Shown: one piece after another, positions 14,774 to 61,865 of the stretch
Numbering within the stretch: position 1 is the stretch's first letter
Layout: each line of letters begins with the position of its first letter
Assembly (NCBI GenBank): GCA_963842085.1
Contig: CAWJET010000001.1
Location: forward strand, 2,112,001 to 2,176,000
Direction of reading: 5' to 3'
DNA: 64,000 nt
Origin: an uncultured delta proteobacterium
GTDB taxonomy: Bacteria; Desulfobacterota; Binatia; Binatales; Binataceae
Notes under the pieces: model-generated
Seen by the model: the letters and a program-made list of their open reading frames with translations, nothing else
The model's database searches: none
What the model was told of the DNA's origin: nothing
Translations under genes and position numbers: made by a program

Positions 14774-14895
14774 GTGAACCTCGGCAGCGATCCGGCCAGC
14801 CCGCATAACATCACCCTGACAGGAACCGGGCCTTGACCTGAGCCCTTGCGTCTTCAGACTGAGCAGGTTGTTCTGGCGGAGGGGGGAGGGAGTCG
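14774..14895. repeat. Direct repeat copy 2 (att)
   Basis: Matches 12675-12796. Confidence 0.95.
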
Positions 14896-14969
14896 AACCC
14901 TCCGGCAACAATATTAGCCGCCAAGCCGGTTTTGAAGACCGGTAAGGCCACCGGGCCTTTTCCTCCTCC
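14874..14969 (-). tRNA. selC: tRNA-Sec (UCA)
   Basis: 96 nt; 8-bp acceptor stem (one A.C mismatch), 6-bp D-stem AAGGCC/GGCCTT with 4-nt loop, CTTCAAA anticodon loop, long variable arm, GTTCGACTC, CCA end. Confidence 0.92.
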
Positions 14970-48114: not shown

Positions 48115-49261
48115 TTATTTCTTAGCTTCGCGCACCGCGCCCTCGTGCCCACCGCTTTGGTGACCACCACCCTCGTGACTCGCACTCGCCTGTCTGTGCT
48201 GTTCAGGTTGCTGGCGAGACGAGTGCTGCTCGTGAGTCGCCTGCTGATGCTGAGCCTGCTGCGGACGCGCCTGCTGCTGATGCGTAGCCTGCTGATGGCT
48301 GGCCTGCTGCTGATGAGTCGCCTGCTGCTCGGTGCGAGTAGCCCGCTGCTCGTTCTGAGTAGCCCGCTGCTGATTGTGAGTCGCCTGCTGCTGATTGCGA
48401 GTAGCCTGCTGCTCGCGCGACGCCTGCTGCTGGCGAGTCGCTTCATTGCGCTGAGTGGTTGCCGCTCTTTCATTCACGCGCGTCTGCTGCTCGCGCGACG
48501 CCTGCTGCTGGCGGCTCGCCTCGTTGCGCTGATTGGTAGCCGCCTGCTCATTCACCCGCGTTTGCTGCTCGCGCGACGCCTGCTGCTGGCGAGTCGCCAC
48601 ATTGCGCTGCTCGCTCGCCGTCCTCTCGTTGACGGCCGCCTTCTCGTTCACCTGCTTTTGCTGGTTCGAGGCCTGTTGGCGACTCTGCGCGCTACCTTCG
48701 TTCTCGGTCCGCATCACAGCCCGGTGATCATTCGGCTCCGTGTGATTCGCCCAGTTGCTGTGCTGGCTGGTCCAGTTGGGATGGTTCGCGGAAACCCAGC
48801 TCGCGTTCTGGTTGTACCACCACTGACCATTGCCAGTTGTGCTGCGCATCGTAGGCGCCGTCCGTGTCGCGCCATGCCGGATACCATGAAATCCAGTTCG
48901 GATGATTGGCGTAGAAGAAATCCGGATCGTTCTGATGCCACCAGTACGCATCTTGCCAAGTGCCATCGCTCTCGTAGTCGCCATCCTGGATGAGCCACAG
49001 GGCGTCCATGAAGCGCCATTCCGGATGATGGGCGTAGAACCACATGATGTCGTGCTGATGCCACCATCGCGCGCCTCGCCAGGTGTGAGTATTGTCATAC
49101 GCGCCCCATCCGGCTTCGCCGGGGCCGCCGTAGTAGCCGGGGCCGTTGTAGCCGGGGCCGGGACCGTATTGCGCGAATGACGGCGCTGCCATTCCGAACG
49201 CCAGGATCGCGCCGGACAAAGCAATCGTCTTTCCGAGATTTTTGATCAATTTCGTTCGCAT
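48115..49261 (-). CDS. Secreted Trp-repeat/Gln-tail protein, frameshift ~48829
   Basis: N-half in ORF 48728-49261, C-half in ORF 48115-49224; ccat|tgcc here vs ccatAAtgcc in the paralog near 21195 shows a 2-nt deletion. Confidence 0.8.
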
Positions 49262-49295
49262 AAGCGGTAATGCCGTGAGACTGGGCGTCTCGTGC

Positions 49296-49421
49296 GGACC
49301 TCCTCAAGCCTTGGCAATATCGATTTGACGATGGTCTAGCGAGACGTGGTCAAAGGCGAGCGGAAAGACCACTATCGGGCTGGATCAGAGCCGGACTCGA
49401 ATCCTATATCGATTCCGACTA
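49296..49421 (-). ncRNA. Conserved structured 5' leader, copy 1
   Basis: High identity to 52241-52367; two hairpins; preceded by TAGAAT -10. Confidence 0.55.
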
Positions 49422-49614
49422 CTTAATTCTATAATAGTAGTTCCGAATTAGTAACCGCAGAAACACTAATGATGTGCTCAAAAGAACGAAATACATACTC
49501 ACTTTCTGACTCTATCGGTTCTAAGCGAAATCCAAGTGGCTACTCCTGATCGATTCTACCTGCTCGAGAAGTTGCCAACGGTGTTTCCTGAATCGGCCTG
49601 GAACTCCGGGCAAG

Positions 49615-51489
49615 TTATGATTTCCGGGTTTCCGCGTTTTGGATGAGACCGCTCTGACCAGCGGTTGCCGTCCTGGTGTCGACCAATGGACGGTTGCTGC
49701 TGATTCCTGATGATCGCGAAACCGAGCGTCTAAGAGCGTATAGACGTATGGCGTGACGTACTTCGCCTCTGCTGCCGCATACTTGCGATGCACCGGCATC
49801 GAGGAGTTCTGAGCGCTGCGACAATGCGGATGCTCCGCCAGCGATGATGGTTAAGTGCGGTGACGCCGCCATCAGCGCGCGCACCAGCTCGACTGCTGCG
49901 GGCATGCACTCCGCTGTGGTGCACGAGAGAAAGACCATGTCGGGTGCGTATTGGGTTACAAAGGCACAAATCTCTGCCGGCGATTTATTTATGCCAAGAA
50001 AATTAGCGGCGCTCCCGGTCCGCCTGAGAAGTTCGAGCAGCATGAGAAGCCCGAGAGTGTGAACTTCGCCGGGCGGCACTATGCCCAGGAAGCGAAGCCG
50101 GCCTCTCAATCTGGGTTTGTCGAATCGGTCTCCGAGTTCCTTCACCAGCGCGACCGTCGTTTCGAAAACAAGGCGCTGATTCTCTTCGCTGATATGACTT
50201 TCAGACCGCTCTTCCCCGGCCAGAACGACGGCGGGGACGAGGACGTCGTCGAAGGTCGGCTCGAGACCATTTTTGTCGCAATACCCGACGGCGATCTTAC
50301 GCGCGCTCGACTGATCCAGCTCGAGCAGGCTGCGATAGTAGTCGTGATAATCTTCACGGGCGCTGTCGTCGCCGAACAGCACGGCGAAGAAACCAAGTGC
50401 GGGAATATAGTCACCCGCGACCTTAAGGCACGCGGTCAAGGAGGTGGCGAGCAAGAGTCCCGGAAGTCCCCACAGCCACCCCCAGAACATCGCGGAGAAC
50501 AACAGGCCAAGCGGCGACAGACCAATTCCGCGACCGATTAAAAAAGGCTCGATCAGGTAGCCCACGATTTGATCGAGAATGACGAACGAGGCAAAGACTT
50601 CGACTGATTCACTCCATCCGGGAGAGACCGCAAAGGCTACAAACATCGGCAGTAGAGCGGCAACCGGAACGCCGACGTACGGAACGAAACGAAACAGCGC
50701 TGCCAAAGAACCCCACAGAATTGGGTTCGGCAACCCGATCATCCACATAGTCAATCCTATCGCAACTCCGTATCCAAGATTAGTCAGAGCGAATAGCAAC
50801 AGGTAATGACCAACTGCTTCACCCGCTGCCCCAATCGCCTCGGCCGAAAGCGTAATTCGCCCCCGTGCCGCAAGCCGCACCAGCCGATCACGCAAATCGG
50901 TTCGGCCATAAAGTAGAAAGAACATCAGCACCATGACCAGCAGCGCTTCGAGCAGGCCTGACAAGATTGGGACAACCGGCTTCTCGGCCTGTTCCAGGTA
51001 CGACGGCTCGGCCGGCGTCTGAACGACACTGGTGGCTTTTGAGACCTTTGGTCGCGGCGTCAGGTCGCTGATCTGCTGCTCGACGTCCTTGATTCCATAC
51101 TGTACCCGCAGCATCCACTCGGGCGTGCTACCTTCCAACGCGCTCAACTTAGTAGCGATGTTGTTGGTGTAATCGGTAACCTGAACGGCGACAGAGGTAA
51201 GCTCGACCGTTACGAAATAGCCAATACCGATAACAATTGCGATTGCCGTTACCACAACCAGCGCAGCGCTGACAAAGGTTCCAACCAAACGATCCAGCCG
51301 GCTCGCAATCGGACTGAAAATGACGGCCAGCAACGCAGCCATCGTCAACGGCATCAAGATGCTTTTCGCGAAATACAGAACCACGGTCGCAAGGACTACC
51401 GCGACAACCGGTCCCGCAGAACTCCCGCCGTCCGGGTGTTCATCATGCTCGTGCTCGAGAATGAGCGGACTCGTCGAGGATTCTTCCAC
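49615..51489 (-). CDS. AI-2E (PerM) family transporter fused to a cobalamin-binding-like domain
   Basis: RFVPYVG, IEPFLIGRGIGLSP, WGWLWGLPGLLLA; C-terminal GEVHTLG...FLSCT...IIAGG. Confidence 0.85.
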   Translation of the reverse strand: MEESSTSPLILEHEHDEHPDGGSSAGPVVAVVLATVVLYFAKSILMPLTMAALLAVIFSPIASRLDRLVGTFVSAALVVVTAIAIVIGIGYFVTVELTSVAVQVTDYTNNIATKLSALEGSTPEWMLRVQYGIKDVEQQISDLTPRPKVSKATSVVQTPAEPSYLEQAEKPVVPILSGLLEALLVMVLMFFLLYGRTDLRDRLVRLAARGRITLSAEAIGAAGEAVGHYLLLFALTNLGYGVAIGLTMWMIGLPNPILWGSLAALFRFVPYVGVPVAALLPMFVAFAVSPGWSESVEVFASFVILDQIVGYLIEPFLIGRGIGLSPLGLLFSAMFWGWLWGLPGLLLATSLTACLKVAGDYIPALGFFAVLFGDDSAREDYHDYYRSLLELDQSSARKIAVGYCDKNGLEPTFDDVLVPAVVLAGEERSESHISEENQRLVFETTVALVKELGDRFDKPRLRGRLRFLGIVPPGEVHTLGLLMLLELLRRTGSAANFLGINKSPAEICAFVTQYAPDMVFLSCTTAECMPAAVELVRALMAASPHLTIIAGGASALSQRSELLDAGASQVCGSRGEVRHAIRLYALRRSVSRSSGISSNRPLVDTRTATAGQSGLIQNAETRKS

Positions 51490-51555
51490 AATTGTCCTCC
51501 GGTCAGTAATCAGCCCAGCCAGAGTCCACAGATGAAGCCGACAAATTGAGCCGGC

Positions 51556-51780
51556 CTACCCTTTCTGATACAGGCCGCCTGCCACTAGAACCATCCCGAC
51601 GATTAGTGCCGCCCCACTGAGAATGGGCGGTATTGCGTGTGAGATTGGCTCGTTCGCTTGAATTTTGAGATCGCCAAGCGTGACAACGTTCTTCGTCTGA
51701 TTCGTGGTGAACACCGGCGACGCAATCGCAGGGAGGCCAAGCAACGCGAGAATTGCGCCGATCATTACTATGGGTTTCAT
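51556..51780 (-). CDS. Small two-TM membrane protein (DUF3185-like)
   Basis: Paralog of 15552-15776 (FTTNxTKNVVTLGDLKxQA). Confidence 0.8.
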   Translation of the reverse strand: MKPIVMIGAILALLGLPAIASPVFTTNQTKNVVTLGDLKIQANEPISHAIPPILSGAALIVGMVLVAGGLYQKG

Positions 51781-51847
51781 TTTCTCTCCGACTCGAACTT
51801 CGTCAACGTAATGATCAGCTATTGGCTCGCGGTGAATTCGCGCTTAT

Positions 51848-52237
51848 TCATCCGGCTGCCTTGGTTGCTAGTGCGAGACGGCCCCAAACTGTCCTTCCTG
51901 AGTCTGCCAGCATTTTTCCGGCAGCATCCACAACCAACGCGGCCAACGCGAAAACAAACAAAGACAGTATAACCGCCAATCGCACTTCGCTCCAGGCCAC
52001 AGTCACGGCGAGACTTCCGATCTGTCCCGATTGCAAGTGCCGCCCCGTTTGCGAGTCCACGACAAACACGCTCACCGGATTTATCACGTGTGACAAGAAA
52101 GTGAGGTATAGCCAGTACACGTCCACGATCACAAATCCGCACAAAATGCTAAATCGCGAAAGGCCCTTGCTTGACGTTAAATTCATACTCGACTCCAAAC
52201 GGATCAAGTCGGACAGGCTTTCAGCCGAGCTCTCCAT
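51848..52237 (-). CDS. Hypothetical membrane protein
   Basis: GAGGAGG RBS, two hydrophobic segments. Confidence 0.6.
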   Translation of the reverse strand: MESSAESLSDLIRLESSMNLTSSKGLSRFSILCGFVIVDVYWLYLTFLSHVINPVSVFVVDSQTGRHLQSGQIGSLAVTVAWSEVRLAVILSLFVFALAALVVDAAGKMLADSGRTVWGRLALATKAAG

Positions 52238-52240
52238 AAA

Positions 52241-52367
52241 GGACCTCCTCGAGCCTTGATTCTTTAATCATTTACGATGGTCTAGCGGAACGTGGTCGAA
52301 GGCGAGCGAAAGGCCACTGTCGGGCTGGATCAGAGTCGGAACTCGAATCCTATACCGATTCCGACTA
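52241..52367 (-). ncRNA. Conserved structured 5' leader, copy 2
   Basis: Matches 49296-49421; spans the predicted TSS to the RBS. Confidence 0.55.
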
Positions 52368-52371
52368 GTTG

Positions 52372-52400
52372 ATAGTACACTTAGTTATTTGGAGTGTCAC
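52372..52400 (-). promoter_or_regulatory. sigma70-like promoter
   Basis: GTGACA-17 bp-TACTAT on the minus strand immediately before the leader. Confidence 0.6.
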
Positions 52401-52497
52401 AATGAATAATTTATATAGTATAACTTCGGTGCCCGTGAGAACAAAACAACTGAATATACTCGGGTACTCATTTTACTATCTTCGACGATTCATCAAA

Positions 52498-55400
52498 TCA
52501 GCCAAGTATAATTCGCACTCGATGGGTGGCGCTGTCATCGGCGAGGGCGATTTGCGCCGGGCGTACTACCAGCGCCTTGCCGTCGAGCTCCATGCTGGTC
52601 ACTCCGCGGCTGACGCCGCGCGGGTTTTCGACCGCGATTTCGTAACGCGTTGCGCCGTATCGATAGACAATCTCGAAGCCCGGCCACTTTGTCGGGATGC
52701 ACGGATCGATCACCAGCGTTTTACCGCGAAGCCGAAAGCCCAATATCCACTCGAGGCCCGCGCGATACATCCATCCCGCGGAGCCGGTGTACCAGGTCCA
52801 TCCGCCGCGCCCGACGTGCGGCGGCATCGAGTACACGTCGGCGCACGCCACGTACGGCTCGACTTTGTAGCGATGGATCCCGGCGCGCGTGTTCGCGTGA
52901 TTGATCGGATTCAGTAGTGAGAACAGTTCGCCCGCCTTGTCACCGTCACCGAGCATCGAAAACGCGATCACCGACCATAGCGCGCCGTGCGTGTATTGGC
53001 CGCCGTTCTCCCTGATGCCGGGCGGATAGCCCTTGATGTAGCCGGGATCGAGCGGGGTGTGATCGAACGGCGGCGTGAACAGCAGCACCAGGCCGTCTTC
53101 GCGTTTGACCAGGTATTCGTCAACGGCCGCCATCGCGGTCTTAGCGTGGAGCGGACTCGCGGCGCCGGAGATTACACTCCACGACTGCGCGATCGAATCG
53201 ATGCGGCATTCGATGTTGCCAGCCGAGCCGAGCGGCGTGCCGTCATCGAAGTACCCGCGCCGATACCAGTTGCCGTCCCATCCTTCGCGCTCGAGCGATC
53301 CCGCGAGTGCCGTTGCGTGACTCCTCCAGGTCGCAGCGCACGCATCCTCGCGCCGGACATCCGCCAACGGTGCGAATGCCTGGAGCGTCGTGTAGAGGAA
53401 CCATCCGAGCCAGATGCTCTCGCCCTTGCCTGCCTCGCCGACGCGGTTCATGCCGTCGTTCCAATCGCCCGACCCGAACAGCGGAATTCCGTGGACGCCG
53501 ACCGCGAGGCTTTGGTCGAGTCCAAGAGCGCAATGCTCGAAGATTGTCCGGCACTGATCGGAGACCGTCGGCTGAAAAAACGATTCAACCTCGCCGGGAG
53601 GCAGCTCCGGACCGTCAAGGAAAGGGACAGTTTCCTCGAGGATACCGAGGTCGCCTGTCACCTCTATGTAGTGAGCGACCGCGTACGCGAGCCAGACGCG
53701 ATCGTCCGCGATACGGGTGCGAACGCCCTGTCCCGCGGGCGGAAGCCACCAATGCTGCACGTCGCCGGCAACGAACTGGCGCGAGGCCGCCCGAATCAGT
53801 TGTTCCCGCGTGAGCGCCGGCTGTGCCACCGTCAGCGCCATCACGTCCTGGAGCTGATCGCGAAAGCCGTACGCGCCTCCCGCCTGGTAGAAGGCGGACC
53901 GGGCCCAGAGGCGGCACGCCACAGTCTGATAGAGCAGCCATCGGTTGAGCATAATGTCCATCGAACGGTCCGGAGTCTTGACCTGAACGGCGCCAAGCAA
54001 GTCGTCCCAGTAGCGCGTGACTGCTGCCAAAGCCGAGTCGTGATCGGCGTCGCGATATTTTCTGATTGTGGCAATCGCTTCCGCCCTGCTCGCCGCCTCG
54101 CCGAGAAAGAAGGCGACCTCGGTCATGGCGTTAGGCCTGAGCGTTAGCCTGGTTTGCAGCGCGGCGCACGGATCGAGCGCGGCTCCCGCCTTGGCGGACA
54201 GCGGCTTTCCGTTCGCGAGCGCAGCGGGGTTGTCAAGCGTTCCGTTGCGGCCGAGAAATCCGGTTCTGTCCGCGGTCCACGAGCTTTGCTGGCCGCTCAA
54301 ATCCGCGAATGCGATCCGGTTTCCGTAGTCGATGCTGAAGGAGTTGCGCACGAGTACCGCGTGAGTTTCGGGCTCGATCTCGGAGACGATGTACGGGGCG
54401 GAGGCGCCGCGCGAAGTGCCGAGCACCCATTCCACGTAAGCAGTCACCGACAAACGCCGCGCGCGCGGTGAGAGATTTCGAATCATCAACCGCGAAATCT
54501 TGACTGAGCCGTCCAGCGGCACGTACTGCGTCAGCTCGAGTGAAATTCCGTGCGAGGTGTGCTCGAAGACGCTGTAGCCGTGGCCGTGTCGAACGACGTA
54601 TGGCGCCACATCTTCGCGTATCGGCAGCGCGGTCGGTCCCCACAGCTCACCGGTATCCAGGTCGTGAACGTAGAGCACCTCGCCGGGACGGTCGCTCACC
54701 GGATCGTTCGACCATTGCGTAATCTGATGCTGCTGGCTGTTGATTGCCCACGTGTAGCCGCCGCCCTCGACCGAAACCTGGAAGCCGAACGACGGATTCG
54801 CGATCACGTTGATCCACGGCGCCGGTGTCCATTGCCCCTCGCCGAGAATCGTTACGTACTCACTGCCGTCGGCGGCAAATCCTCCAAGGCCGTTGAAAAA
54901 CTCGATCTGTCGACGCGGCATCGACAACGCCGCGCGTTGTATCGCGGGTGTTCGCCGCGGCGGCGGGCCTGCAGCCGGCTCGAACACCTCCAGCCGTTTG
55001 ACCTGCTCGGACAAGGTCCCGCGCCGGCTCAGCAACACCGCTCGCGCCACGGTCTGCAGAACACTTCGCAGCTCGGCCGACACCAGGTCGGCGCGCAGCA
55101 CGAACACATTTCCGCATGCGCCTTGCCCGTCGGGCGCTCGCGCCGGGGTGGTCCGAACAAGGGCCTCGAGCGCGATTTGCAGGTCCTGATCGTATGACGG
55201 GGGCCGCTCGTTCAGGATCACCAAATCGACGCACAGCCGCTTCATCCGCCAATATTCATGGGCCCGCACCAGCTCGCGCACGATCTCCATATCGGAGGTC
55301 TCGTCGATCCGAACCAGCACGATAGGCAGGTCGCCGGAAATCCCGGCGGGCCACAGCTTCGACTGTCCGCCCTCGCCGCGCCGCAACAGGTCGGACGAAG

Positions 55401-58400
55401 GCCGCAACGTCGGGTCCGAGTAGAGCACGCGATTGGCGATGCGCTGGAAAAGATGCGCTTCCTCGGCGTCAACGCGCAGGTGATGGAGCTGCACCTGCGC
55501 CTGCGTCCACGCCAGCGTCACGGCGCGTTCGAAAGCGTTGGAGTCGTGATGCTTGTCGACCAGGTCGAGTGCTTCGGTCCGCGACGGCGCGACGATAGTC
55601 CAGAACGCGACGCGCGCGGTTGCTCCCGCCGCAATGCGCAGCCGGCGGCGGACGCTGAAGATCGGATCGAGAACGGCGCCAACAGTATCCGACAGCGGCC
55701 GCCCGTCGATAACCGAAACGGCGTCGCGGAGCTCGCGCCCGCGCCCGAGAAATCGCGCGCGGTCGGTCTCGAACTGTATCTCGCCGACAGACTCGCCCTC
55801 GGCCACCGCCAGGTGCGCCGCCCACACCGGCACCTCGGTAGGCGAGCGGAGCCGCCGCGTCGCCAGTAGCGCTCCAACCTCGGCGTCAAATTCCGTCTGC
55901 ACGAACATCTTGGAGAAGGCCGGATGCGCAGTATCCGACGCTGTGGACGCCAGCACGATCTCGGCGTACGAGGTCACCTCGACCTCGCGCACGCGGCTGC
56001 CGAGATTCGAAATGGAGACGCGCCGCACTTCGGCGTCGTCCTCGGGTGATACCGCGACTTCGAGCGTAGTCGTCACAGTGCCGTCGCGCCGCACGATTTC
56101 CGCGCGGTCCTCGGAGAACTCGACTTCGTAGCTGTCCGCCTCGACGCCGGCCGGCTGAAACCCCGCCGACCAGACCTTGCCGCTCTGCACATCGCGGACG
56201 AAGATGTACGTCCCCCACGAATCGCAGGTGACATCCTCGCGCCATCGCGTGACCGCCAGGTCGCGCCAGCGGCTGAAGCCCGAGCCGGCCGCCGTGATCA
56301 TCACGGTGTACTTGCCGTTAGATAGAAGATGCGTGCGCGGGATCAGATCGTGCGGCGAATGGAACCGGCGAACTGTCGGCGGAGCGCTTTCGCGAACATT
56401 GGCTTCCGCCTTGACCTCCTCGGCCCGCGGGCGCGCCACCGCTACATCGCGCGGTGTCCGCTCCTGGAGCAGCAGCTCGGTCGCCTGGATGATGGGCTCG
56501 GCGTGAAACCGCGCGCGCATCGCGCCGTCGTTCAGCGCGTCGGCAATCGCAACCAGCGTCATGCCTTGGTGATGCGCCATGTACGCACGCACCACAGCGA
56601 CGTTCTCGCCTTCGGGCACCCGCGACGGCGTATAGTCCAACGCTTCATACCAGCCGAAGTGGCCGAGGCCGCCTGCGGCGAACAGCCGCGAGAAGTTTTG
56701 CGCCGCGGCCTCCGGATTGACCATCGCCGCCAGCGCCGTCGCATAGGGTGCGATCACCGCGTTCTCGCTCAGCCCGCGCTTCAGTCCGAGTCCGGGCACG
56801 CCGAAGTTCGAGTACTGATAAGTGAGCTCGAGATCGCGCGCGTTGTAGGCAGATTCCGAAATTCCCCATGGCACGCCAAGCTCGGCGCCGTACTTCATCT
56901 GGCGGCGCACCACCAGCCTATTCGTCTGATCGAGCAGGCTGCCGACCGGCGCGCGCATCACCAGCGACGGCATCAGGTACTCGAACATCGAGCCCGACCA
57001 CGAAATCAGCGCCGAGCCTCGATCGACCGGCGTCATCCCGCGTCCCAACCGAAACCAGTGCCGCGACGGCACCTCCCCCTTAGCAATCGCGACGAAGCTC
57101 GCCAGCCGCGCCTCCGACGCAAGTAAGTCGTAGCAGTTGGAGTCCAGACTGCCGTCCGTGACGCGGTAGCCAATTGAAAGGAGTTGGCGCGCGGGATCGA
57201 GCAGGAAGTCGAACTTCATCGCGTCAAGCATCCTGCTCGCGACCGCCGCGAGTTCCGTCAGCCGCCGCTCGAGTGCTTTGGCCGCGTCGCTCGCACGCGC
57301 GCAGGCAGCTTGATTGAGCGTCGAGTCCCGGCTCGCCGCATCATTATATAGGTCCGGCAAGTCGCCCAGCTTAGGTATCGATTCGAGCTGCGTCGAGCTG
57401 ACATCGAGCGCGCCCGTCTTGACCCGAGCGCGCAACGCCCACGGCTTGAGCAACTCGACGTCGCGTTGATGACTGCGGATGCACGATCGCAGCGCCTCCG
57501 CCCATGCGAGCACGTCGCTGGCCGCGGAGTCCGCGCGCTCCAGCGTCAAGGCGCGCGCGATATCGGTGGCCGAATCGCTGTGAGCCGCGAGCTCCGTCAG
57601 CCACGCCGTCATTTCCACCACGGTCCGCGGCTCCGACTGCGTCAACGGCGCCATGGTGTCGAGCACTTCCTCGAGCTGCTTGGGCGTGACGGTGTAGCTG
57701 CGCCGGTCGGTGCCCAGCGCCGCCAGCGACTCGCGCACCAGCGCCATCGAGTCTTCGATTCCCTTTAGCCAATTCGGGTCCACCGCCGGCCGCGCGATCA
57801 TTTCGCGGCACGCGTTGCCCAGCGCGATCAGATGCCCCGCCAGGTTGCCGCTGTCCACCGACGACACGTACTTCGGATCCAGCGGCCGCAGGTCGCGCGT
57901 GCCGTACCAGTTGTAGAAATGCCCGCGGAACCGCTCCATCCGCTTCATCGTGTCGAAGGTCGCGCCCAGCCGCTCGACCGTCTCATGCGTTCCGAGCCAG
58001 CCGAAGTCGTGCGCCGCGATAATCGACAGCAGGTACAGCCCAAGGTTGGTGGGCGACGTCCGATGGGCCAGCGCGGGCTTGGGGTCTTCCTGAAAATTGT
58101 CGGGCGGCACCGCGTTGTCTTCCGCCGTCACGAACGTCTCGAAAAATCGCCAGGTGCGTCGCGCGGTCAGGCGCAGCGCCCTGATGTCGGCAAGGGAAAG
58201 CACCTTGGCGCCCTCGAGCGGCGGCGGCAGACTCGCCCATCGCGCGACGTCCGGCGACACCATCCACAAAATCATGAACGGAACTGCGATTGCGGTGCCA
58301 CCGCGGCTTGCCGACGCGACGACGATTGCGGCCGCGACCGCCAGTGCCCAGGCTCCCGCCATCATGCCGTAAAACCCGCGCACGTCGGGACGAGTCGCGC

Positions 58401-61308
58401 CCTTCGCCTGCGCCGCGGTCGTCCACTCGAGCATCAGCCTATGACTGACGTACAAGCGGTAGAGGGTGCGCGAAATCGCGTCGCACATCAGCCACGCTTG
58501 ATGTGCGAGCAGGGTCAGCATCATCGCAAGCTGTGAGAGCCCCGCCAGCAAATCCTTGCCGACGGCGAGGATGTGGCTGCGCTTGGAGATGTCGCGGCGG
58601 CGGGGGATGATTCCGGTGACGAACGGGAGCATCGGCGCCGTCGCGATCGTCGCGCCGATGAACGCGGTCCAGATCGCGGCGCCAGCTAACGGCAGCGTCC
58701 AGCCCGCGACAAGTGCGAGCAAAGTGATTGGCGCCGAGAGCGTACGGCGCAGGTTGTCGATCATTTTCCAGCGCCCGAGCGGCGGCATCGACGAGCGGCC
58801 GTCGCGCCCTTGCGAGGTAGTTGCGCCCGCGTCGGAATCATGCGGACGGCCTAAAATCCACGGCAGCAGTTGCCAGTCACCGCGCGCCCATCGATGCTGT
58901 CTGCCGGCGGCAACGTCGTAGCGCGACGGAAACTCCTCGACCAGCTCGATGTCGGAGACCAGTCCCGCGCGCGCGAAAGTTCCTTCGAAAAGATCGTGGC
59001 TCAGAAGCGTGTTGTCAGGAACGCGGCCCGCCAGCGCCGCCTCGAACACGTCTACATCGTAAATCCCTTTGCCGCTGTACGAACCTTCATCGAGGAGATC
59101 CTGGTAAACGTCGGAAACGGCGAACGCGTAAGGATCGATTCCGGCGGCGCTCGAGAAGGTGCGCTGGAAGACCGAGCCGTCGCGCCCGGTCGGCAGTGAC
59201 CCCGTGATTCGCGGCTGAAGAACTCCGTGTCCTTCGATCACGCGGCCGAGTTGCTTGTCGAATCGGGGCGCGTTCAGCGGATGCGCCATTTTGCCGACCA
59301 TGCGCTTGGCGGCGCCGCGCGGCAGGCGCGTGTCGGCGTCGAGCGTGATCACGTAGCGCACTCCGTCGGGGACTGCGGACGCGCCTCCATCCTGCGCAAT
59401 GAACGTGGTATCGGTCCCGCCGCGCAGCATCCGATTCAGCTCATGCAGCTTGCCGCGTTTGCGCTCCCAACCCATCCACACGCCCTCGGCTTCGTCCCAC
59501 ACGCGCCTGCGATGGAGCAGCAAAAATCTCGCGCCGGCAGGTGCCGCTCCGTGACGCTGATTCAGCCGCGCGATTCCCGCCGCCGCTGCCGCCAGCAAGT
59601 CGTCGTCGCCGGGTGCGGTTTCGGTCGCCGAGTCGGTCCAGTCCGACAGCAACGCAAAGTACAGCTCCCCGTCCGGACTTGCCAGGTAATGAACCTCGAG
59701 CCGCTCGATCTGCTCGTCGATCTCGGCGCGCGTAGTCAACAGGGTCGGCATCACGACCATCGTGCGCAGGCTCGCCAGCACGCCATCATGAAGCTCAAGT
59801 GCGGGAATCGTGTTGGGACCGATGATGGTCGTAACGGCGCGATTGACCAGCGCCACCGCCGCATCCATCGCCGGAATGATCGCGACCATCGCGAGGATGA
59901 ACCGAGTCCATCCGCCGACGTGCGCATCCGCAATCGCGAGCAGGCCGCACGCGACGATGATTGCCGTGACCACCGCGATCGTACCCAGGTATCCCTTGAT
60001 TCCGGCCGCCGCGTTGGCGCGAGCTATCCAGTCGCGAACTGGCGCACGAAATCCCAGCTTCGCTTCGAGCGCGTGACGCCCCTCTGAAATGAGGTAGTAG
60101 CCCGGATGATGCTCGCGACGCGCCACCACGCCGTCGCCATTTGGCAGTTCGGACGCCGCTCCCTTGGCCGCGGCAATCGCGCTTTGCGCGACCTCGACTT
60201 CGGTGTGCCCTGAACCTCGCGCGAGTTCCTCGATCGCGTGCCGATAGCTATCGCGCGTAGCGAAATCCATCGCCGCGAAGTCGCTGTCGGCGCGCAGTAC
60301 TGCATCGACCGCGCTCACGCTCTCGAAGAAATCCGCCCATTCGACCGCCGACATCAGGCCCATACTCGTGATCACGTTGCGCACCGTCACGTTCATCGCG
60401 CCCTGCCCCTGATGCACTTCGCGGACGATTTCGTCGGCGGTAGTGCCCTCCGCCGCCAGCCGCTGATCCAGCCACTCGAGCGCCGGCGTAACCTTGGGAC
60501 CCTGATCGCGCAGTCGTTGAACCATCTGCACCGCGAATGCCGCCGGAACAGGTGAGCGATCAAAATCCTTGAACACGACCTCAGCCGGTTCCGCGTCGCG
60601 GCCATTTGCTCCGAGCAGCCGGTCCGCCACCAAGTCGGCGCTCTGGCGTTCGGCACGGCCGCGGCCAATCTCTTCAGCCGCGCGGCGCAGGTTTTCGACC
60701 AGCACGATCCGAAGCGTAATCGCGACCGCCCACAACTCGCCGATCGTCAGCGGCTGCACGCGCTGGTAGGCCTGCACGAACCTGGACAGCGTCTGCGTAT
60801 GGAAGTAGCTGTCGGTATGCGCGACGTAGGCCCACGCGATCCCGAACACGCGCGGATATCCTTCCAGCGGACCCTCAGCCAGCTTGGGCAGTTGACGATA
60901 GAATCCGCGCGGCAGGTCGTCGCGAATTTCGCGAATCTGCTCTTCGACGACGTGAAAATTGTCGACCAGCCACTCCGCCGCGGGCGTGATCGCGCGCTCC
61001 TCCCGGATCGCGCCCGCGATGCTGCGATATGCCTCCAACAACACACGCCCATTCTCGCTGACGCGCGGCGCCATTGGCCTCCCGAGCCCCGGACGGTCCG
61101 TCACGCGCTGAGCAACTGCCAGCGACTCGCCATGCTGCTCCAGGCGCTCGACGCTGAACAATTCGGCACGGATCGGTTCTTCCGTGTGCGCGAAACCGGG
61201 CGGAGGTGCTTTACGCGCACGGAGAAATAACAGACTCAAACTTGCCTCTCGATCCGGGCGACCGGGTACGGGATGAAATAAACGCGAACTGCGCAGAGTG
61301 AAGGGCAC
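52498..61308 (-). CDS. ndvB: Cyclic beta-1,2-glucan synthase (Cgs/NdvB/ChvB; GT84 plus GH94-like C-terminus)
   Basis: 2936 aa; WERKRGKL, ITLDADT, SHDLFEG, RWARGDWQL, SWSGSMFEYLMP, FRDQLQD, GDWNDGMN, RENGGQYTH. Confidence 0.93.
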   Translation of the reverse strand: MPFTLRSSRLFHPVPGRPDREASLSLLFLRARKAPPPGFAHTEEPIRAELFSVERLEQHGESLAVAQRVTDRPGLGRPMAPRVSENGRVLLEAYRSIAGAIREERAITPAAEWLVDNFHVVEEQIREIRDDLPRGFYRQLPKLAEGPLEGYPRVFGIAWAYVAHTDSYFHTQTLSRFVQAYQRVQPLTIGELWAVAITLRIVLVENLRRAAEEIGRGRAERQSADLVADRLLGANGRDAEPAEVVFKDFDRSPVPAAFAVQMVQRLRDQGPKVTPALEWLDQRLAAEGTTADEIVREVHQGQGAMNVTVRNVITSMGLMSAVEWADFFESVSAVDAVLRADSDFAAMDFATRDSYRHAIEELARGSGHTEVEVAQSAIAAAKGAASELPNGDGVVARREHHPGYYLISEGRHALEAKLGFRAPVRDWIARANAAAGIKGYLGTIAVVTAIIVACGLLAIADAHVGGWTRFILAMVAIIPAMDAAVALVNRAVTTIIGPNTIPALELHDGVLASLRTMVVMPTLLTTRAEIDEQIERLEVHYLASPDGELYFALLSDWTDSATETAPGDDDLLAAAAAGIARLNQRHGAAPAGARFLLLHRRRVWDEAEGVWMGWERKRGKLHELNRMLRGGTDTTFIAQDGGASAVPDGVRYVITLDADTRLPRGAAKRMVGKMAHPLNAPRFDKQLGRVIEGHGVLQPRITGSLPTGRDGSVFQRTFSSAAGIDPYAFAVSDVYQDLLDEGSYSGKGIYDVDVFEAALAGRVPDNTLLSHDLFEGTFARAGLVSDIELVEEFPSRYDVAAGRQHRWARGDWQLLPWILGRPHDSDAGATTSQGRDGRSSMPPLGRWKMIDNLRRTLSAPITLLALVAGWTLPLAGAAIWTAFIGATIATAPMLPFVTGIIPRRRDISKRSHILAVGKDLLAGLSQLAMMLTLLAHQAWLMCDAISRTLYRLYVSHRLMLEWTTAAQAKGATRPDVRGFYGMMAGAWALAVAAAIVVASASRGGTAIAVPFMILWMVSPDVARWASLPPPLEGAKVLSLADIRALRLTARRTWRFFETFVTAEDNAVPPDNFQEDPKPALAHRTSPTNLGLYLLSIIAAHDFGWLGTHETVERLGATFDTMKRMERFRGHFYNWYGTRDLRPLDPKYVSSVDSGNLAGHLIALGNACREMIARPAVDPNWLKGIEDSMALVRESLAALGTDRRSYTVTPKQLEEVLDTMAPLTQSEPRTVVEMTAWLTELAAHSDSATDIARALTLERADSAASDVLAWAEALRSCIRSHQRDVELLKPWALRARVKTGALDVSSTQLESIPKLGDLPDLYNDAASRDSTLNQAACARASDAAKALERRLTELAAVASRMLDAMKFDFLLDPARQLLSIGYRVTDGSLDSNCYDLLASEARLASFVAIAKGEVPSRHWFRLGRGMTPVDRGSALISWSGSMFEYLMPSLVMRAPVGSLLDQTNRLVVRRQMKYGAELGVPWGISESAYNARDLELTYQYSNFGVPGLGLKRGLSENAVIAPYATALAAMVNPEAAAQNFSRLFAAGGLGHFGWYEALDYTPSRVPEGENVAVVRAYMAHHQGMTLVAIADALNDGAMRARFHAEPIIQATELLLQERTPRDVAVARPRAEEVKAEANVRESAPPTVRRFHSPHDLIPRTHLLSNGKYTVMITAAGSGFSRWRDLAVTRWREDVTCDSWGTYIFVRDVQSGKVWSAGFQPAGVEADSYEVEFSEDRAEIVRRDGTVTTTLEVAVSPEDDAEVRRVSISNLGSRVREVEVTSYAEIVLASTASDTAHPAFSKMFVQTEFDAEVGALLATRRLRSPTEVPVWAAHLAVAEGESVGEIQFETDRARFLGRGRELRDAVSVIDGRPLSDTVGAVLDPIFSVRRRLRIAAGATARVAFWTIVAPSRTEALDLVDKHHDSNAFERAVTLAWTQAQVQLHHLRVDAEEAHLFQRIANRVLYSDPTLRPSSDLLRRGEGGQSKLWPAGISGDLPIVLVRIDETSDMEIVRELVRAHEYWRMKRLCVDLVILNERPPSYDQDLQIALEALVRTTPARAPDGQGACGNVFVLRADLVSAELRSVLQTVARAVLLSRRGTLSEQVKRLEVFEPAAGPPPRRTPAIQRAALSMPRRQIEFFNGLGGFAADGSEYVTILGEGQWTPAPWINVIANPSFGFQVSVEGGGYTWAINSQQHQITQWSNDPVSDRPGEVLYVHDLDTGELWGPTALPIREDVAPYVVRHGHGYSVFEHTSHGISLELTQYVPLDGSVKISRLMIRNLSPRARRLSVTAYVEWVLGTSRGASAPYIVSEIEPETHAVLVRNSFSIDYGNRIAFADLSGQQSSWTADRTGFLGRNGTLDNPAALANGKPLSAKAGAALDPCAALQTRLTLRPNAMTEVAFFLGEAASRAEAIATIRKYRDADHDSALAAVTRYWDDLLGAVQVKTPDRSMDIMLNRWLLYQTVACRLWARSAFYQAGGAYGFRDQLQDVMALTVAQPALTREQLIRAASRQFVAGDVQHWWLPPAGQGVRTRIADDRVWLAYAVAHYIEVTGDLGILEETVPFLDGPELPPGEVESFFQPTVSDQCRTIFEHCALGLDQSLAVGVHGIPLFGSGDWNDGMNRVGEAGKGESIWLGWFLYTTLQAFAPLADVRREDACAATWRSHATALAGSLEREGWDGNWYRRGYFDDGTPLGSAGNIECRIDSIAQSWSVISGAASPLHAKTAMAAVDEYLVKREDGLVLLFTPPFDHTPLDPGYIKGYPPGIRENGGQYTHGALWSVIAFSMLGDGDKAGELFSLLNPINHANTRAGIHRYKVEPYVACADVYSMPPHVGRGGWTWYTGSAGWMYRAGLEWILGFRLRGKTLVIDPCIPTKWPGFEIVYRYGATRYEIAVENPRGVSRGVTSMELDGKALVVRPAQIALADDSATHRVRIILG

Positions 61309-61789: not shown

Positions 61790-61865
61790 TGGTGGAGCAG
61801 AAGGGATTTGAACCCTCGACCCCTACGTTGCGAACGTAGTGCTCTCCCAGCTGAGCTACTGCCCC
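61790..61865 (-). tRNA. tRNA-Ala (CGC)
   Basis: GGGGCAGTAGCTCAGCTGGGAGAGC...TTCGCAA...GGTTCAAATCC...CCACCA, 76 nt, G3:U70. Confidence 0.97.

Follow-up and report, generated by a model that had tools for sequence, protein, structure and literature searches.

Why do two unrelated genes of one genome carry nearly the same stretch of sequence directly ahead of them, and does this stretch act as RNA? The question is raised by the window, a 64,000-nucleotide (nt) stretch of DNA from an uncultured delta proteobacterium (assembly GCA_963842085.1, contig CAWJET010000001.1, positions 2,112,001 to 2,176,000 of the forward strand), in which a first-pass annotation had noticed the repeat and proposed a candidate new cis-regulatory RNA. 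The two stretches, copy 1 (49296-49425) and copy 2 (52241-52370), are direct repeats and are both read from the minus strand of the window. The comparative analysis described here places them in a family of leaders whose two hairpins, P1 and P2, stay paired through compensatory changes and whose P2 apical loop is complementary to the region of the Shine-Dalgarno (SD) sequence. That the element is a structured mRNA leader at all can be held with high confidence; the readings of what such a leader would do are graded below.

The duplicated stretch and its family

With copy 1 as the query against the whole genome, BLAST aligned 129 of 130 nt to copy 2 (85% identity, E = 1.5e-32), a similarity ahead of unrelated genes that is far beyond chance, and a repeat finder resolved the two copies into three collinear blocks of 88-91% identity. 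Pairwise alignment places the homology from a few bases past the -10 boxes through GAGGAGGTCC, with unrelated flanks on both sides, in agreement with the limits given by the first-pass annotation, from just after the -10 boxes to the GAGGAGG SD. Everything else in its description of the repeat is present as well. Both copies contain the 5′ hairpin AGUCGGA...UCCGRCU and the GUGGYC...GACCAC stem with its pyrimidine-rich loop, and both contain the CUUYGA/UYGAGG complementarity, the best duplex being slightly shifted, to GCCUU:AAGGC plus CUUUCC:GGAGG. In copy 2, GAGGAGG lies 6 nt ahead of the ATG of an open reading frame (ORF) of 129 amino acids (aa). In copy 1, as the annotation had cautioned, the distance is long: 37 nt separate GAGGAGG (49299-49305) from the ATG at 49261, which opens a signal-peptide protein. 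A site scan found no terminator-like site 3′ of either window copy. The parts of the two copies, given with RNA sense equal to the minus strand of the window, are as follows.

49450-49455 and 49426-49431 (-): copy 1 promoter-like boxes GTTACT and TAGAAT, 18 nt apart; weaker, under the promoter-scan threshold and identified by eye
about 49420-49421 (-): copy 1 predicted transcript start, placed from the promoter-like boxes
49389..49420 (-): copy 1 P1, a terminal hairpin AGUCGGA/UCCGGCU with inner stem UCGA/UCGA and loop UAUAGGAU
49332..49387 (-): copy 1 P2, a long imperfect hairpin made of UGAUCCAGCCCGAUAGUGGUC, the loop and GACCACGUCUCGCUAGACCA
49352..49368 (-): copy 1 apical pyrimidine tract of P2, UCUUUCCGCUCGCCUUU, anti-SD-like and the best duplex partner of AAGGC..GGAGG
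49299..49312 (-): copy 1 AAGGC (49308-49312) and SD-like box GAGGAGG (49299-49305), followed by no start codon
49277..49299 (-): copy 1 post-SD segment GUCCGCACGAGACGCCCAGUCUC, with alternative small hairpins (class A consensus GRGAC...GUCUC), homologous to the first codons of other copies with ACG in place of AUG
48728..49261 (-): gene after copy 1, a 177-aa ORF for a secreted Gly/Pro-rich protein, no Pfam family
52372..52400 (-): copy 2 promoter-like boxes GTGACA-17-TACTAT, from the promoter scan
52334..52366 (-): copy 2 P1 hairpin
52278..52332 (-): copy 2 P2 hairpin, with apical tract CCUUUCGCUCGCCUUC at 52298-52313
52225..52257 (-): copy 2 AAGGC (52253-52257), GAGGAGG (52244-52250) and ATG (52235-52237)
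51848-52237 (-): copy 2 downstream ORF, a 129-aa membrane protein, no Pfam match

The source genome holds four strong copies: the two in the window and two more on contig C1, copy 3 at 538155-538282 (+) and copy 4 at 542849-542962 (-), which show 80% and 75% identity to copy 1 by BLAST, lie about 1.6 Mb from the window and converge on each other. The remaining 13 of the 17 listed genome matches are short and at chance level (E ≥ 0.16). A weak fifth match, L203 (C2:1545825-1545944, minus strand; genome-wide E = 0.0017), combines a good P1 with a P2 whose upper part is mostly missing and, from its sequence, may be a degenerate or variant copy.

A first covariance model, built from the four source-genome copies and scored on 151 related genomes including the source, produced 253 matches in 57 genomes, with 1-12 matches per genome; one of these 57, G089, is unpublished and is counted only in this tally. 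All matches belong to a single family, f1, which is most likely the Binataceae, a family of uncultured soil bacteria. There they occur in 56 of 90 genomes (source excluded), including 41 of 46 in the source genus, and span at least 13 genera, while the four-copy model matched none of 60 genomes from 16 neighbouring families. A broader covariance model, derived from 75 sequences, matched none of 150 further genomes drawn from across the phylum; within the class, it matched 10 of 17 f1 genomes and none of 133 genomes from 18 other families. Because these searches scored samples of genomes with strict filters, the correct wording for other families is that the leader was not found in those searched. 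An 18-mer search of genome contigs (16 specified bases) returned mostly chance matches in unrelated phyla; 46 of the 80 listed loci were rescored with the covariance model, and only the 18 that matched were retained.

The first-pass annotation had recognized no Rfam family in the repeat, and none emerged when the search was run. At gathering score, Rfam 15 matched only tRNA-Sec and one tRNA in the whole window, neither at the leader, and at E ≤ 10 over 49200-52500 it gave only three chance-level matches, none inside the conserved leader; one of them, Corona_FSE at 52158-52234, abuts the copy 2 start codon. The titles and abstracts listed in literature searches on Binatota, Binatia and Binatus and on CsbD-linked RNA motifs contained no description of the leader. 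Given its many homologues and their compensatory changes, the repeat is not a plain recent duplication, and the annotation's candidate holds up as a real new family of cis-regulatory RNA, previously undescribed and outside the families tested, whose mechanism we infer. Its combination of features is new to us: up to 12 copies per genome before unrelated stress genes, inclusion of the first codons, and strictly conserved A.C oppositions. A mobile repeat resembling repetitive extragenic palindromes or miniature inverted-repeat transposable elements fits poorly as well: such a repeat would lie in either orientation and without regard to gene starts, and in 145 of 150 cases a sense ORF opens shortly past the SD, with promoter boxes at a fixed distance upstream.

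Paired hairpins on the predicted mRNA strand

The leader is about 125 nt long, from P1 at its 5′ end to the SD box at its 3′ end. P1 has the consensus A-GUCGG-R-AUCGA-YAUAGGAW-UCGAG-UCCGAC-U. Lower and middle P2 read UYUGAUCCAGCCCGACA on the 5′ side and GUUCCGCUAGACCA on the 3′ side, and enclose the P2 top with its apical loop of 15-17 nt, GUGGYC-[CYUUCCGCUCGCCUUY]-GACCAC. A variable linker of about 20 nt leads to the 3′ box, a near-invariant AAGGCUYGAGGAGG that is followed after 5-8 nt, in most classes, by AUG. Unpaired loop nucleotides are very strongly conserved across the leader family; the loop of P1, with variants such as UAUAGGAU, UAUAAGAG and AAAACGAA, is more variable than P2.

Pairing was assessed in three alignments. 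In the model-fitted alignment A5 (75 sequences), 93.7% of cells are paired and 11 of 24 pairs change on both sides, in 45 cells; this was reached by 0 of 500 shuffles, and slid registers gave at most 32 cells and at most 42.8% paired. The model-fitted alignment A6 draws on a separate set of 82 matches, of which 81 score at family level and come from 80 other loci, the last being the weak L203; it has 90.9% of cells paired and 12 of 24 pairs changed on both sides in 86 cells, again reached by 0 of 500 shuffles, with at most 20 cells in slid registers. In A7, a free MAFFT alignment of 150 sequences, 84.4% of cells are paired, a figure that includes three A.C positions added on purpose, and 14 of 34 pairs change on both sides in 89 cells. 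Here the shuffled mean is 42.6 cells; 0 of 500 shuffles reach the cell count and 3 of 500 the pair count, and slid registers yield at most 63 cells. All seven outer P1 pairs show compensatory changes in A6, where one P1 pair occurs as U-A (44), C-G (31) and U.G (6). In A7, both sides change in 9 of 11 P1 pairs and in 3 of 8 upper P2 pairs, one pair of the top helix being U-A in 129, C-G in 16 and U.G in 2 sequences. Judged by sequence comparison, the family possesses a conserved structured domain supported by covariation, as is expected of a riboswitch.

The compensated states also arose repeatedly: in a FastTree phylogeny computed with the tested columns left out, at least 7 changes lead to C-G at P1 pair 6:39 and at least 4 to C-G at P2-top pair 62:88, counts that are rough because the alignment is short. 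Several observations weigh against this reading and bound its strength. Lower P2 is 98.8% paired in A7 and almost invariant, so that this stem is a putative one; two sequences show its only switch, of one pair from A-U to G-C. Covarying cells cluster by paralogue subfamily, so that independent events are far fewer than cells, and the sequence sample over-represents the best-scoring subfamily. The folding energies of the single copies are not better than those of shuffled sequences on the minus strand (z = -1.41 and -0.44), nor are they on the plus strand (z = -0.07 and -0.68); the case for structure is therefore a comparative one only.

As to the strand, the 24 modelled pairs comprise 1676 cells, of which 94.0% can pair as minus-strand RNA, compared with 88.4% for the opposite strand. 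These pairs hold 114 G.U cells and 21 A.C cells, and those in P1 and mid-P2 that vary among G.U, A-U and G-C make sense on the minus strand only. What counts against it are three P2 positions where A stands opposite C in the minus-strand RNA but the plus strand would form G.U, so that the annotation's caution about better plus-strand pairing of the outer stem was correct. At two of them, which lie in lower P2, 65 and 64 of 70 sequences have A.C or C.A, and the third, beside the P2 top, is C.A in 100, U-A in 35, C-G in 6, G.A in 3 and U.G in 2 of 146. Such conserved A.C oppositions could possibly be protonated A+.C wobble pairs. Gene context decides for the minus strand: nearly all copies (145 of 150) lead into a sense ORF just past the SD, promoter boxes are found on the mRNA side, and conservation extends from the predicted start site into the first codons. 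The same observations leave the alternative of an antisense small RNA, which the annotation had offered, without support. More broadly, a plus-strand antisense RNA or a DNA-level element such as an operator array or mobile repeat is scarcely credible, even if it gains from the perfect 9-bp helix with two G.U pairs that lower P2 forms on the plus strand, from the upper-P2 position that reads better there, and from the slightly better overall pairing of the plus strand once the three A.C positions are counted as pairs. Compensatory changes speak against a purely DNA-level site, and the G.U-to-A.C ratio, the fixed ORF orientation and a conserved block that runs from the predicted start site to the first codons all speak against the plus strand.

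In 54 of 151 upstream regions there is a sigma-70-like match with its -10 box ending 5-8 nt short of the first P1 base (model position 4); the same criterion picks out 6 of 151 after shuffling. With -10 boxes at this fixed distance, the RNA should begin at the foot of P1; it counts against our reading that transcription and the 5′ end of the leader are, at this stage, predictions only. A palindrome, GTTMT-N4-7-RKAAC, was also observed 64-75 nt before the start of the leader model in 16 of 150 upstream regions (e.g., L175, L179, L183 and L281), and copy 1 has a near-match, GTTCTTTTGAGCAC, at the same distance upstream.

Predicted loop to SD pairing and its possible roles

GCCUU in the P2 loop could pair with the AAGGC that precedes the SD: each of the five positions is complementary in no fewer than 144 of 151 sequences, both partners being near-invariant in this set, and exactly this GCCUU:AAGGC pairing was selected by RNAalifold from a free alignment of 150 sequences. 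The loop tract is also the best duplex partner of the SD segment, with the geometry GCCUU:AAGGC plus CUUUCC:GGAGG in most of 70 sequences and a mean duplex energy of -13.7 kcal/mol compared with -10.4 kcal/mol for shuffled SD segments. In the minimum-free-energy (MFE) folds of 145 leaders, computed with a program that handles no pseudoknots, 73 leaders pair the SD core with the loop tract, 33 with another upstream segment and 31 with a downstream one, and 8 leave it unpaired. On average the core is free with a probability of 0.18, and the top of P2, which covariation supports, forms in only 21 of these 145 folds. We infer from the models that a phylogenetically supported hairpin may compete with an energetically preferred SD-masking fold, which would make the leader a two-state element.

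Other findings tell against SD masking or limit its reach. The loop:SD pairing displays no covariation because both partners are nearly invariant, and its energy margin is modest because purine-rich and pyrimidine-rich strands pair anyway. The largest sampled subfamily, that of copy 1 (29 of the first 75 sequences), precedes secreted Gly/Pro-rich proteins and keeps AAGGCUYGAGGAGGUCC, but has ACG or GCG where the other classes have AUG. The real AUG lies about 40-45 nt past GAGGAGG and has no obvious SD of its own. With no start codon after GAGGAGG, SD masking is not the whole story in the copy-1 class, whose SD-like box must have a use beyond ordinary initiation, either within the RNA element or in a standby role.

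Across the other classes, unrelated proteins share their first ~10 codons, which are conserved at the nucleotide level (M-x-x-P-R-x-x-P-I/V-R-N), as in MGRPRFHPIRN, MAQPRRQPVRA, MERPSLRPIRN and MGHSRFHPIRN; at some loci, the conserved stretch is a separate upstream ORF of 10-26 codons ahead of a gene for a CsbD or RRM protein. Since these codons are shared across unrelated proteins, the duplicated module extends into the coding region. Local hairpins after the SD (GGCUU/..GCC, GUCC/GGAC and GRGAC/GUCUC) make a plausible chain of mutually exclusive helices; they are weakly supported, class-specific and outside the core claim. A small protein-coding gene within the leader was considered and rejected, as the GUG..UGA frame of copy 1 is broken by 1-nt indels in copy 2 and others.

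The reading that we favor, with somewhat better than even confidence, is that of a cis-acting leader in which P2 competes with the loop-tract:SD pairing and so sets translation initiation, P1 being a 5′ protective hairpin. Transcription, the switch, its direction and its trigger are putative in what follows. The leader would be transcribed from sigma-70-type promoters together with general-stress and envelope genes. The loop tract would pair with AAGGC..GGAGG as a pseudoknot, or as a long helix once the top of P2 opens, and this pairing would hide the ribosome-binding site. Some effector would then shift the balance between P2 and the loop:SD pairing and thereby the rate of translation initiation, and P1, at the extreme 5′ end, would probably also protect the mRNA. 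The translational switch itself is evenly poised between acceptance and doubt. A bolder and more tentative extension, which we consider possible and hold with low confidence, is an orphan sensor RNA that would gate a whole general-stress regulon post-transcriptionally. It might be a riboswitch for an alarmone, second messenger or ion, or a sensor of pH or ionic strength in which A+.C wobbles shift the balance between P2 and the SD-masking fold, carried by a module that includes the first ~10 codons and copied before up to 12 unrelated genes per genome.

Such a leader would work like known SD-masking leaders, riboswitches and thermometers, and belongs to none of the families tested. ROSE elements are RNA thermometers found in the 5′ untranslated regions of Rhizobiales small heat-shock genes (Rfam RF00435 and relatives). 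Like them, the leader occurs in several copies per genome, is ~100 nt in scale, places multiple hairpins between a promoter and the SD of a stress gene, and has its SD predicted to be paired. Unlike them, it shows no Rfam model similarity at E ≤ 10 and no clear modelled temperature response, is predicted to pair its SD with the apical loop of an upstream hairpin rather than with the opposite strand of a terminal hairpin, is much more conserved, and precedes mostly general-stress and osmotic rather than small heat-shock genes. Riboswitches of the SAM-II and preQ1-II type share with the leader a structured domain and invariant unpaired nucleotides and, as predicted for the leader, a loop-to-3′-tail pairing that reaches the SD and competing folds; the leader differs in having no Rfam riboswitch homology, in genes that give no metabolic clue, and in a largest subfamily without a start codon after the SD-like box. 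CsrA-regulated leaders likewise present one GGA in a hairpin loop and another in the SD, but the source genome has no csrA. The nearest published item found is the yjbJ motif, which has another structure and belongs to another phylum: a weak riboswitch candidate upstream of the CsbD-like yjbJ with 40 representatives, all from Streptococcus, and two hairpins, the second of them terminator-like and about 30 nt upstream of the SD (PMC11109978). That motif too is an orphan structured leader before a CsbD-family general-stress gene, for which its authors weigh a signalling molecule or a protein partner (PMC11109978). The present leader has no terminator, includes the SD and is confined to one family of uncultured soil bacteria.

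The first-pass annotation had spoken of a riboswitch- or thermometer-like translational switch. The structured cis leader in this proposal stands, and a switch through loop:SD pairing is compatible with the data; a riboswitch or thermometer identity is conjectural, with a modelled response that is nearly flat from 20 to 45 °C and heat-shock genes after only one of the four source-genome copies. In the eight test leaders, the modelled unpaired probability of the SD rose slightly over this range (e.g., from 0.15 to 0.16 and from 0.27 to 0.38), pseudoknots being outside the model. An RNA thermometer or another physical sensor of temperature, ionic strength or pH, in which a weak, wobble-rich loop:SD pairing responds without a ligand, is unlikely in our estimation. 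The position of copy 4, ahead of a glycine-zipper gene and then groES-groEL, would suit it, as would a U-rich SD partner tract that forms U.G and U-A pairs in the manner of FourU thermometers, the ROSE-like distribution of multiple copies before stress genes, and three conserved A.C oppositions that could form protonated wobbles and so render P2 pH-dependent. Besides the nearly flat SD accessibility, it is opposed by the lack of a match to ROSE, FourU or any other Rfam thermometer even at E ≤ 10, by linked genes that are mostly osmotic or general-stress rather than heat-shock, and by the high conservation of unpaired loop nucleotides, thermometers being as a rule poorly conserved in sequence.

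These conserved unpaired positions would suit a protein site, and the P1 loop, YAUAGGAW, displays a GGA that together with the GGA of the SD recalls the CsrA consensus. A platform for a trans-acting protein or small RNA, such as a CsrA-like regulator bound at both GGA motifs, is nevertheless very improbable: no candidate partner gene was found in linkage with the copies, and the P1 loop is less conserved than P2. CsrA itself is ruled out, with no match to PF02599 in the 100%-complete source genome and positive scores in control genomes. Rather improbable, too, is a constitutive expression cassette that senses nothing and consists of a 5′ stabilizing hairpin and a strong ribosome-binding region, often with the first ~10 codons, spread by duplication before highly expressed stress genes. 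P1 at the predicted 5′ end, unremarkable folding energies, and a module that unites promoter-proximal sequence, SD and conserved first codons (M-x-x-P-R-x-x-P-I-R-N) before unrelated proteins are all in its favor. It leaves unexplained why P2 internal loops and the loop tract are near-invariant over at least 13 genera, why the P2 top helix is kept by compensatory changes, and why the SD is predicted to be mostly paired (unpaired probability 0.18).

Downstream genes and meaning

Among 175 candidate downstream ORFs, 77 were run against Pfam. CsbD was matched by 7, DUF3309 by 6, glycine-zipper families by 6, BON by 5, and OmpA and AurF-like families by 2 each; Cpn10, a weak YflT and an AI-2E transporter were found once each, alongside five other single matches, and 40 of the 77 had no Pfam family. 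In the source genome, copy 1 precedes the Gly/Pro-rich secreted protein; copy 2, the 129-aa membrane protein, a 74-aa protein and then an AI-2E transporter with a B12-binding domain; copy 3, an ORF without a name; and copy 4, a glycine-zipper protein followed by groES-groEL. Heat-shock genes thus follow one of the four copies only, and most family members stand before genes for CsbD, DUF3309, BON, glycine-zipper and unnamed secreted or membrane proteins. General-stress counterparts of these families in E. coli are OsmY (BON), OsmB (glycine zipper) and YjbJ (CsbD), and the downstream genes look like a general-stress and envelope set, which hints at a stress signal without pointing to any particular ligand.

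Some features of the neighbouring genes were observed in passing. Two frames of the minus strand are needed to match the gene after copy 1 to its orthologue, residues 1-146 in one (48833-49270) and 131-334 in another (48157-48855), which points to a frameshift or assembly error near 48840-48855; CTGCTG-rich tandem repeats of 15, 18 and 78 nt occupy 48209-48640, in the 3′ half of this gene. The third gene of the copy-2 operon (49618-51489, minus strand) encodes a 624-aa protein with an AI-2E family transporter domain and a C-terminal B12-binding domain. A single 2936-aa ORF (52498-61308, minus strand) ends just upstream of the copy-2 promoter. The two tRNAs of the window, both on the minus strand, are a selenocysteine tRNA at 14878-14969 (70.9 bits) and an ordinary tRNA at 61793-61865.

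To our knowledge, few structured leader RNAs control whole stress regulons, and this globally distributed, uncultured soil lineage has had none described. The family comes with 253 natural variants from 57 genomes, a clear two-hairpin core, a predicted anti-SD pairing and a coherent gene set. Should the leader turn out to bind a ligand, it would lead to the signal behind the general stress response of these bacteria and give a functional handle on several protein families whose function is unknown. Were it a stabilizing or translation cassette only, it would still show how a module of promoter, leader and first codons has spread through a genome.

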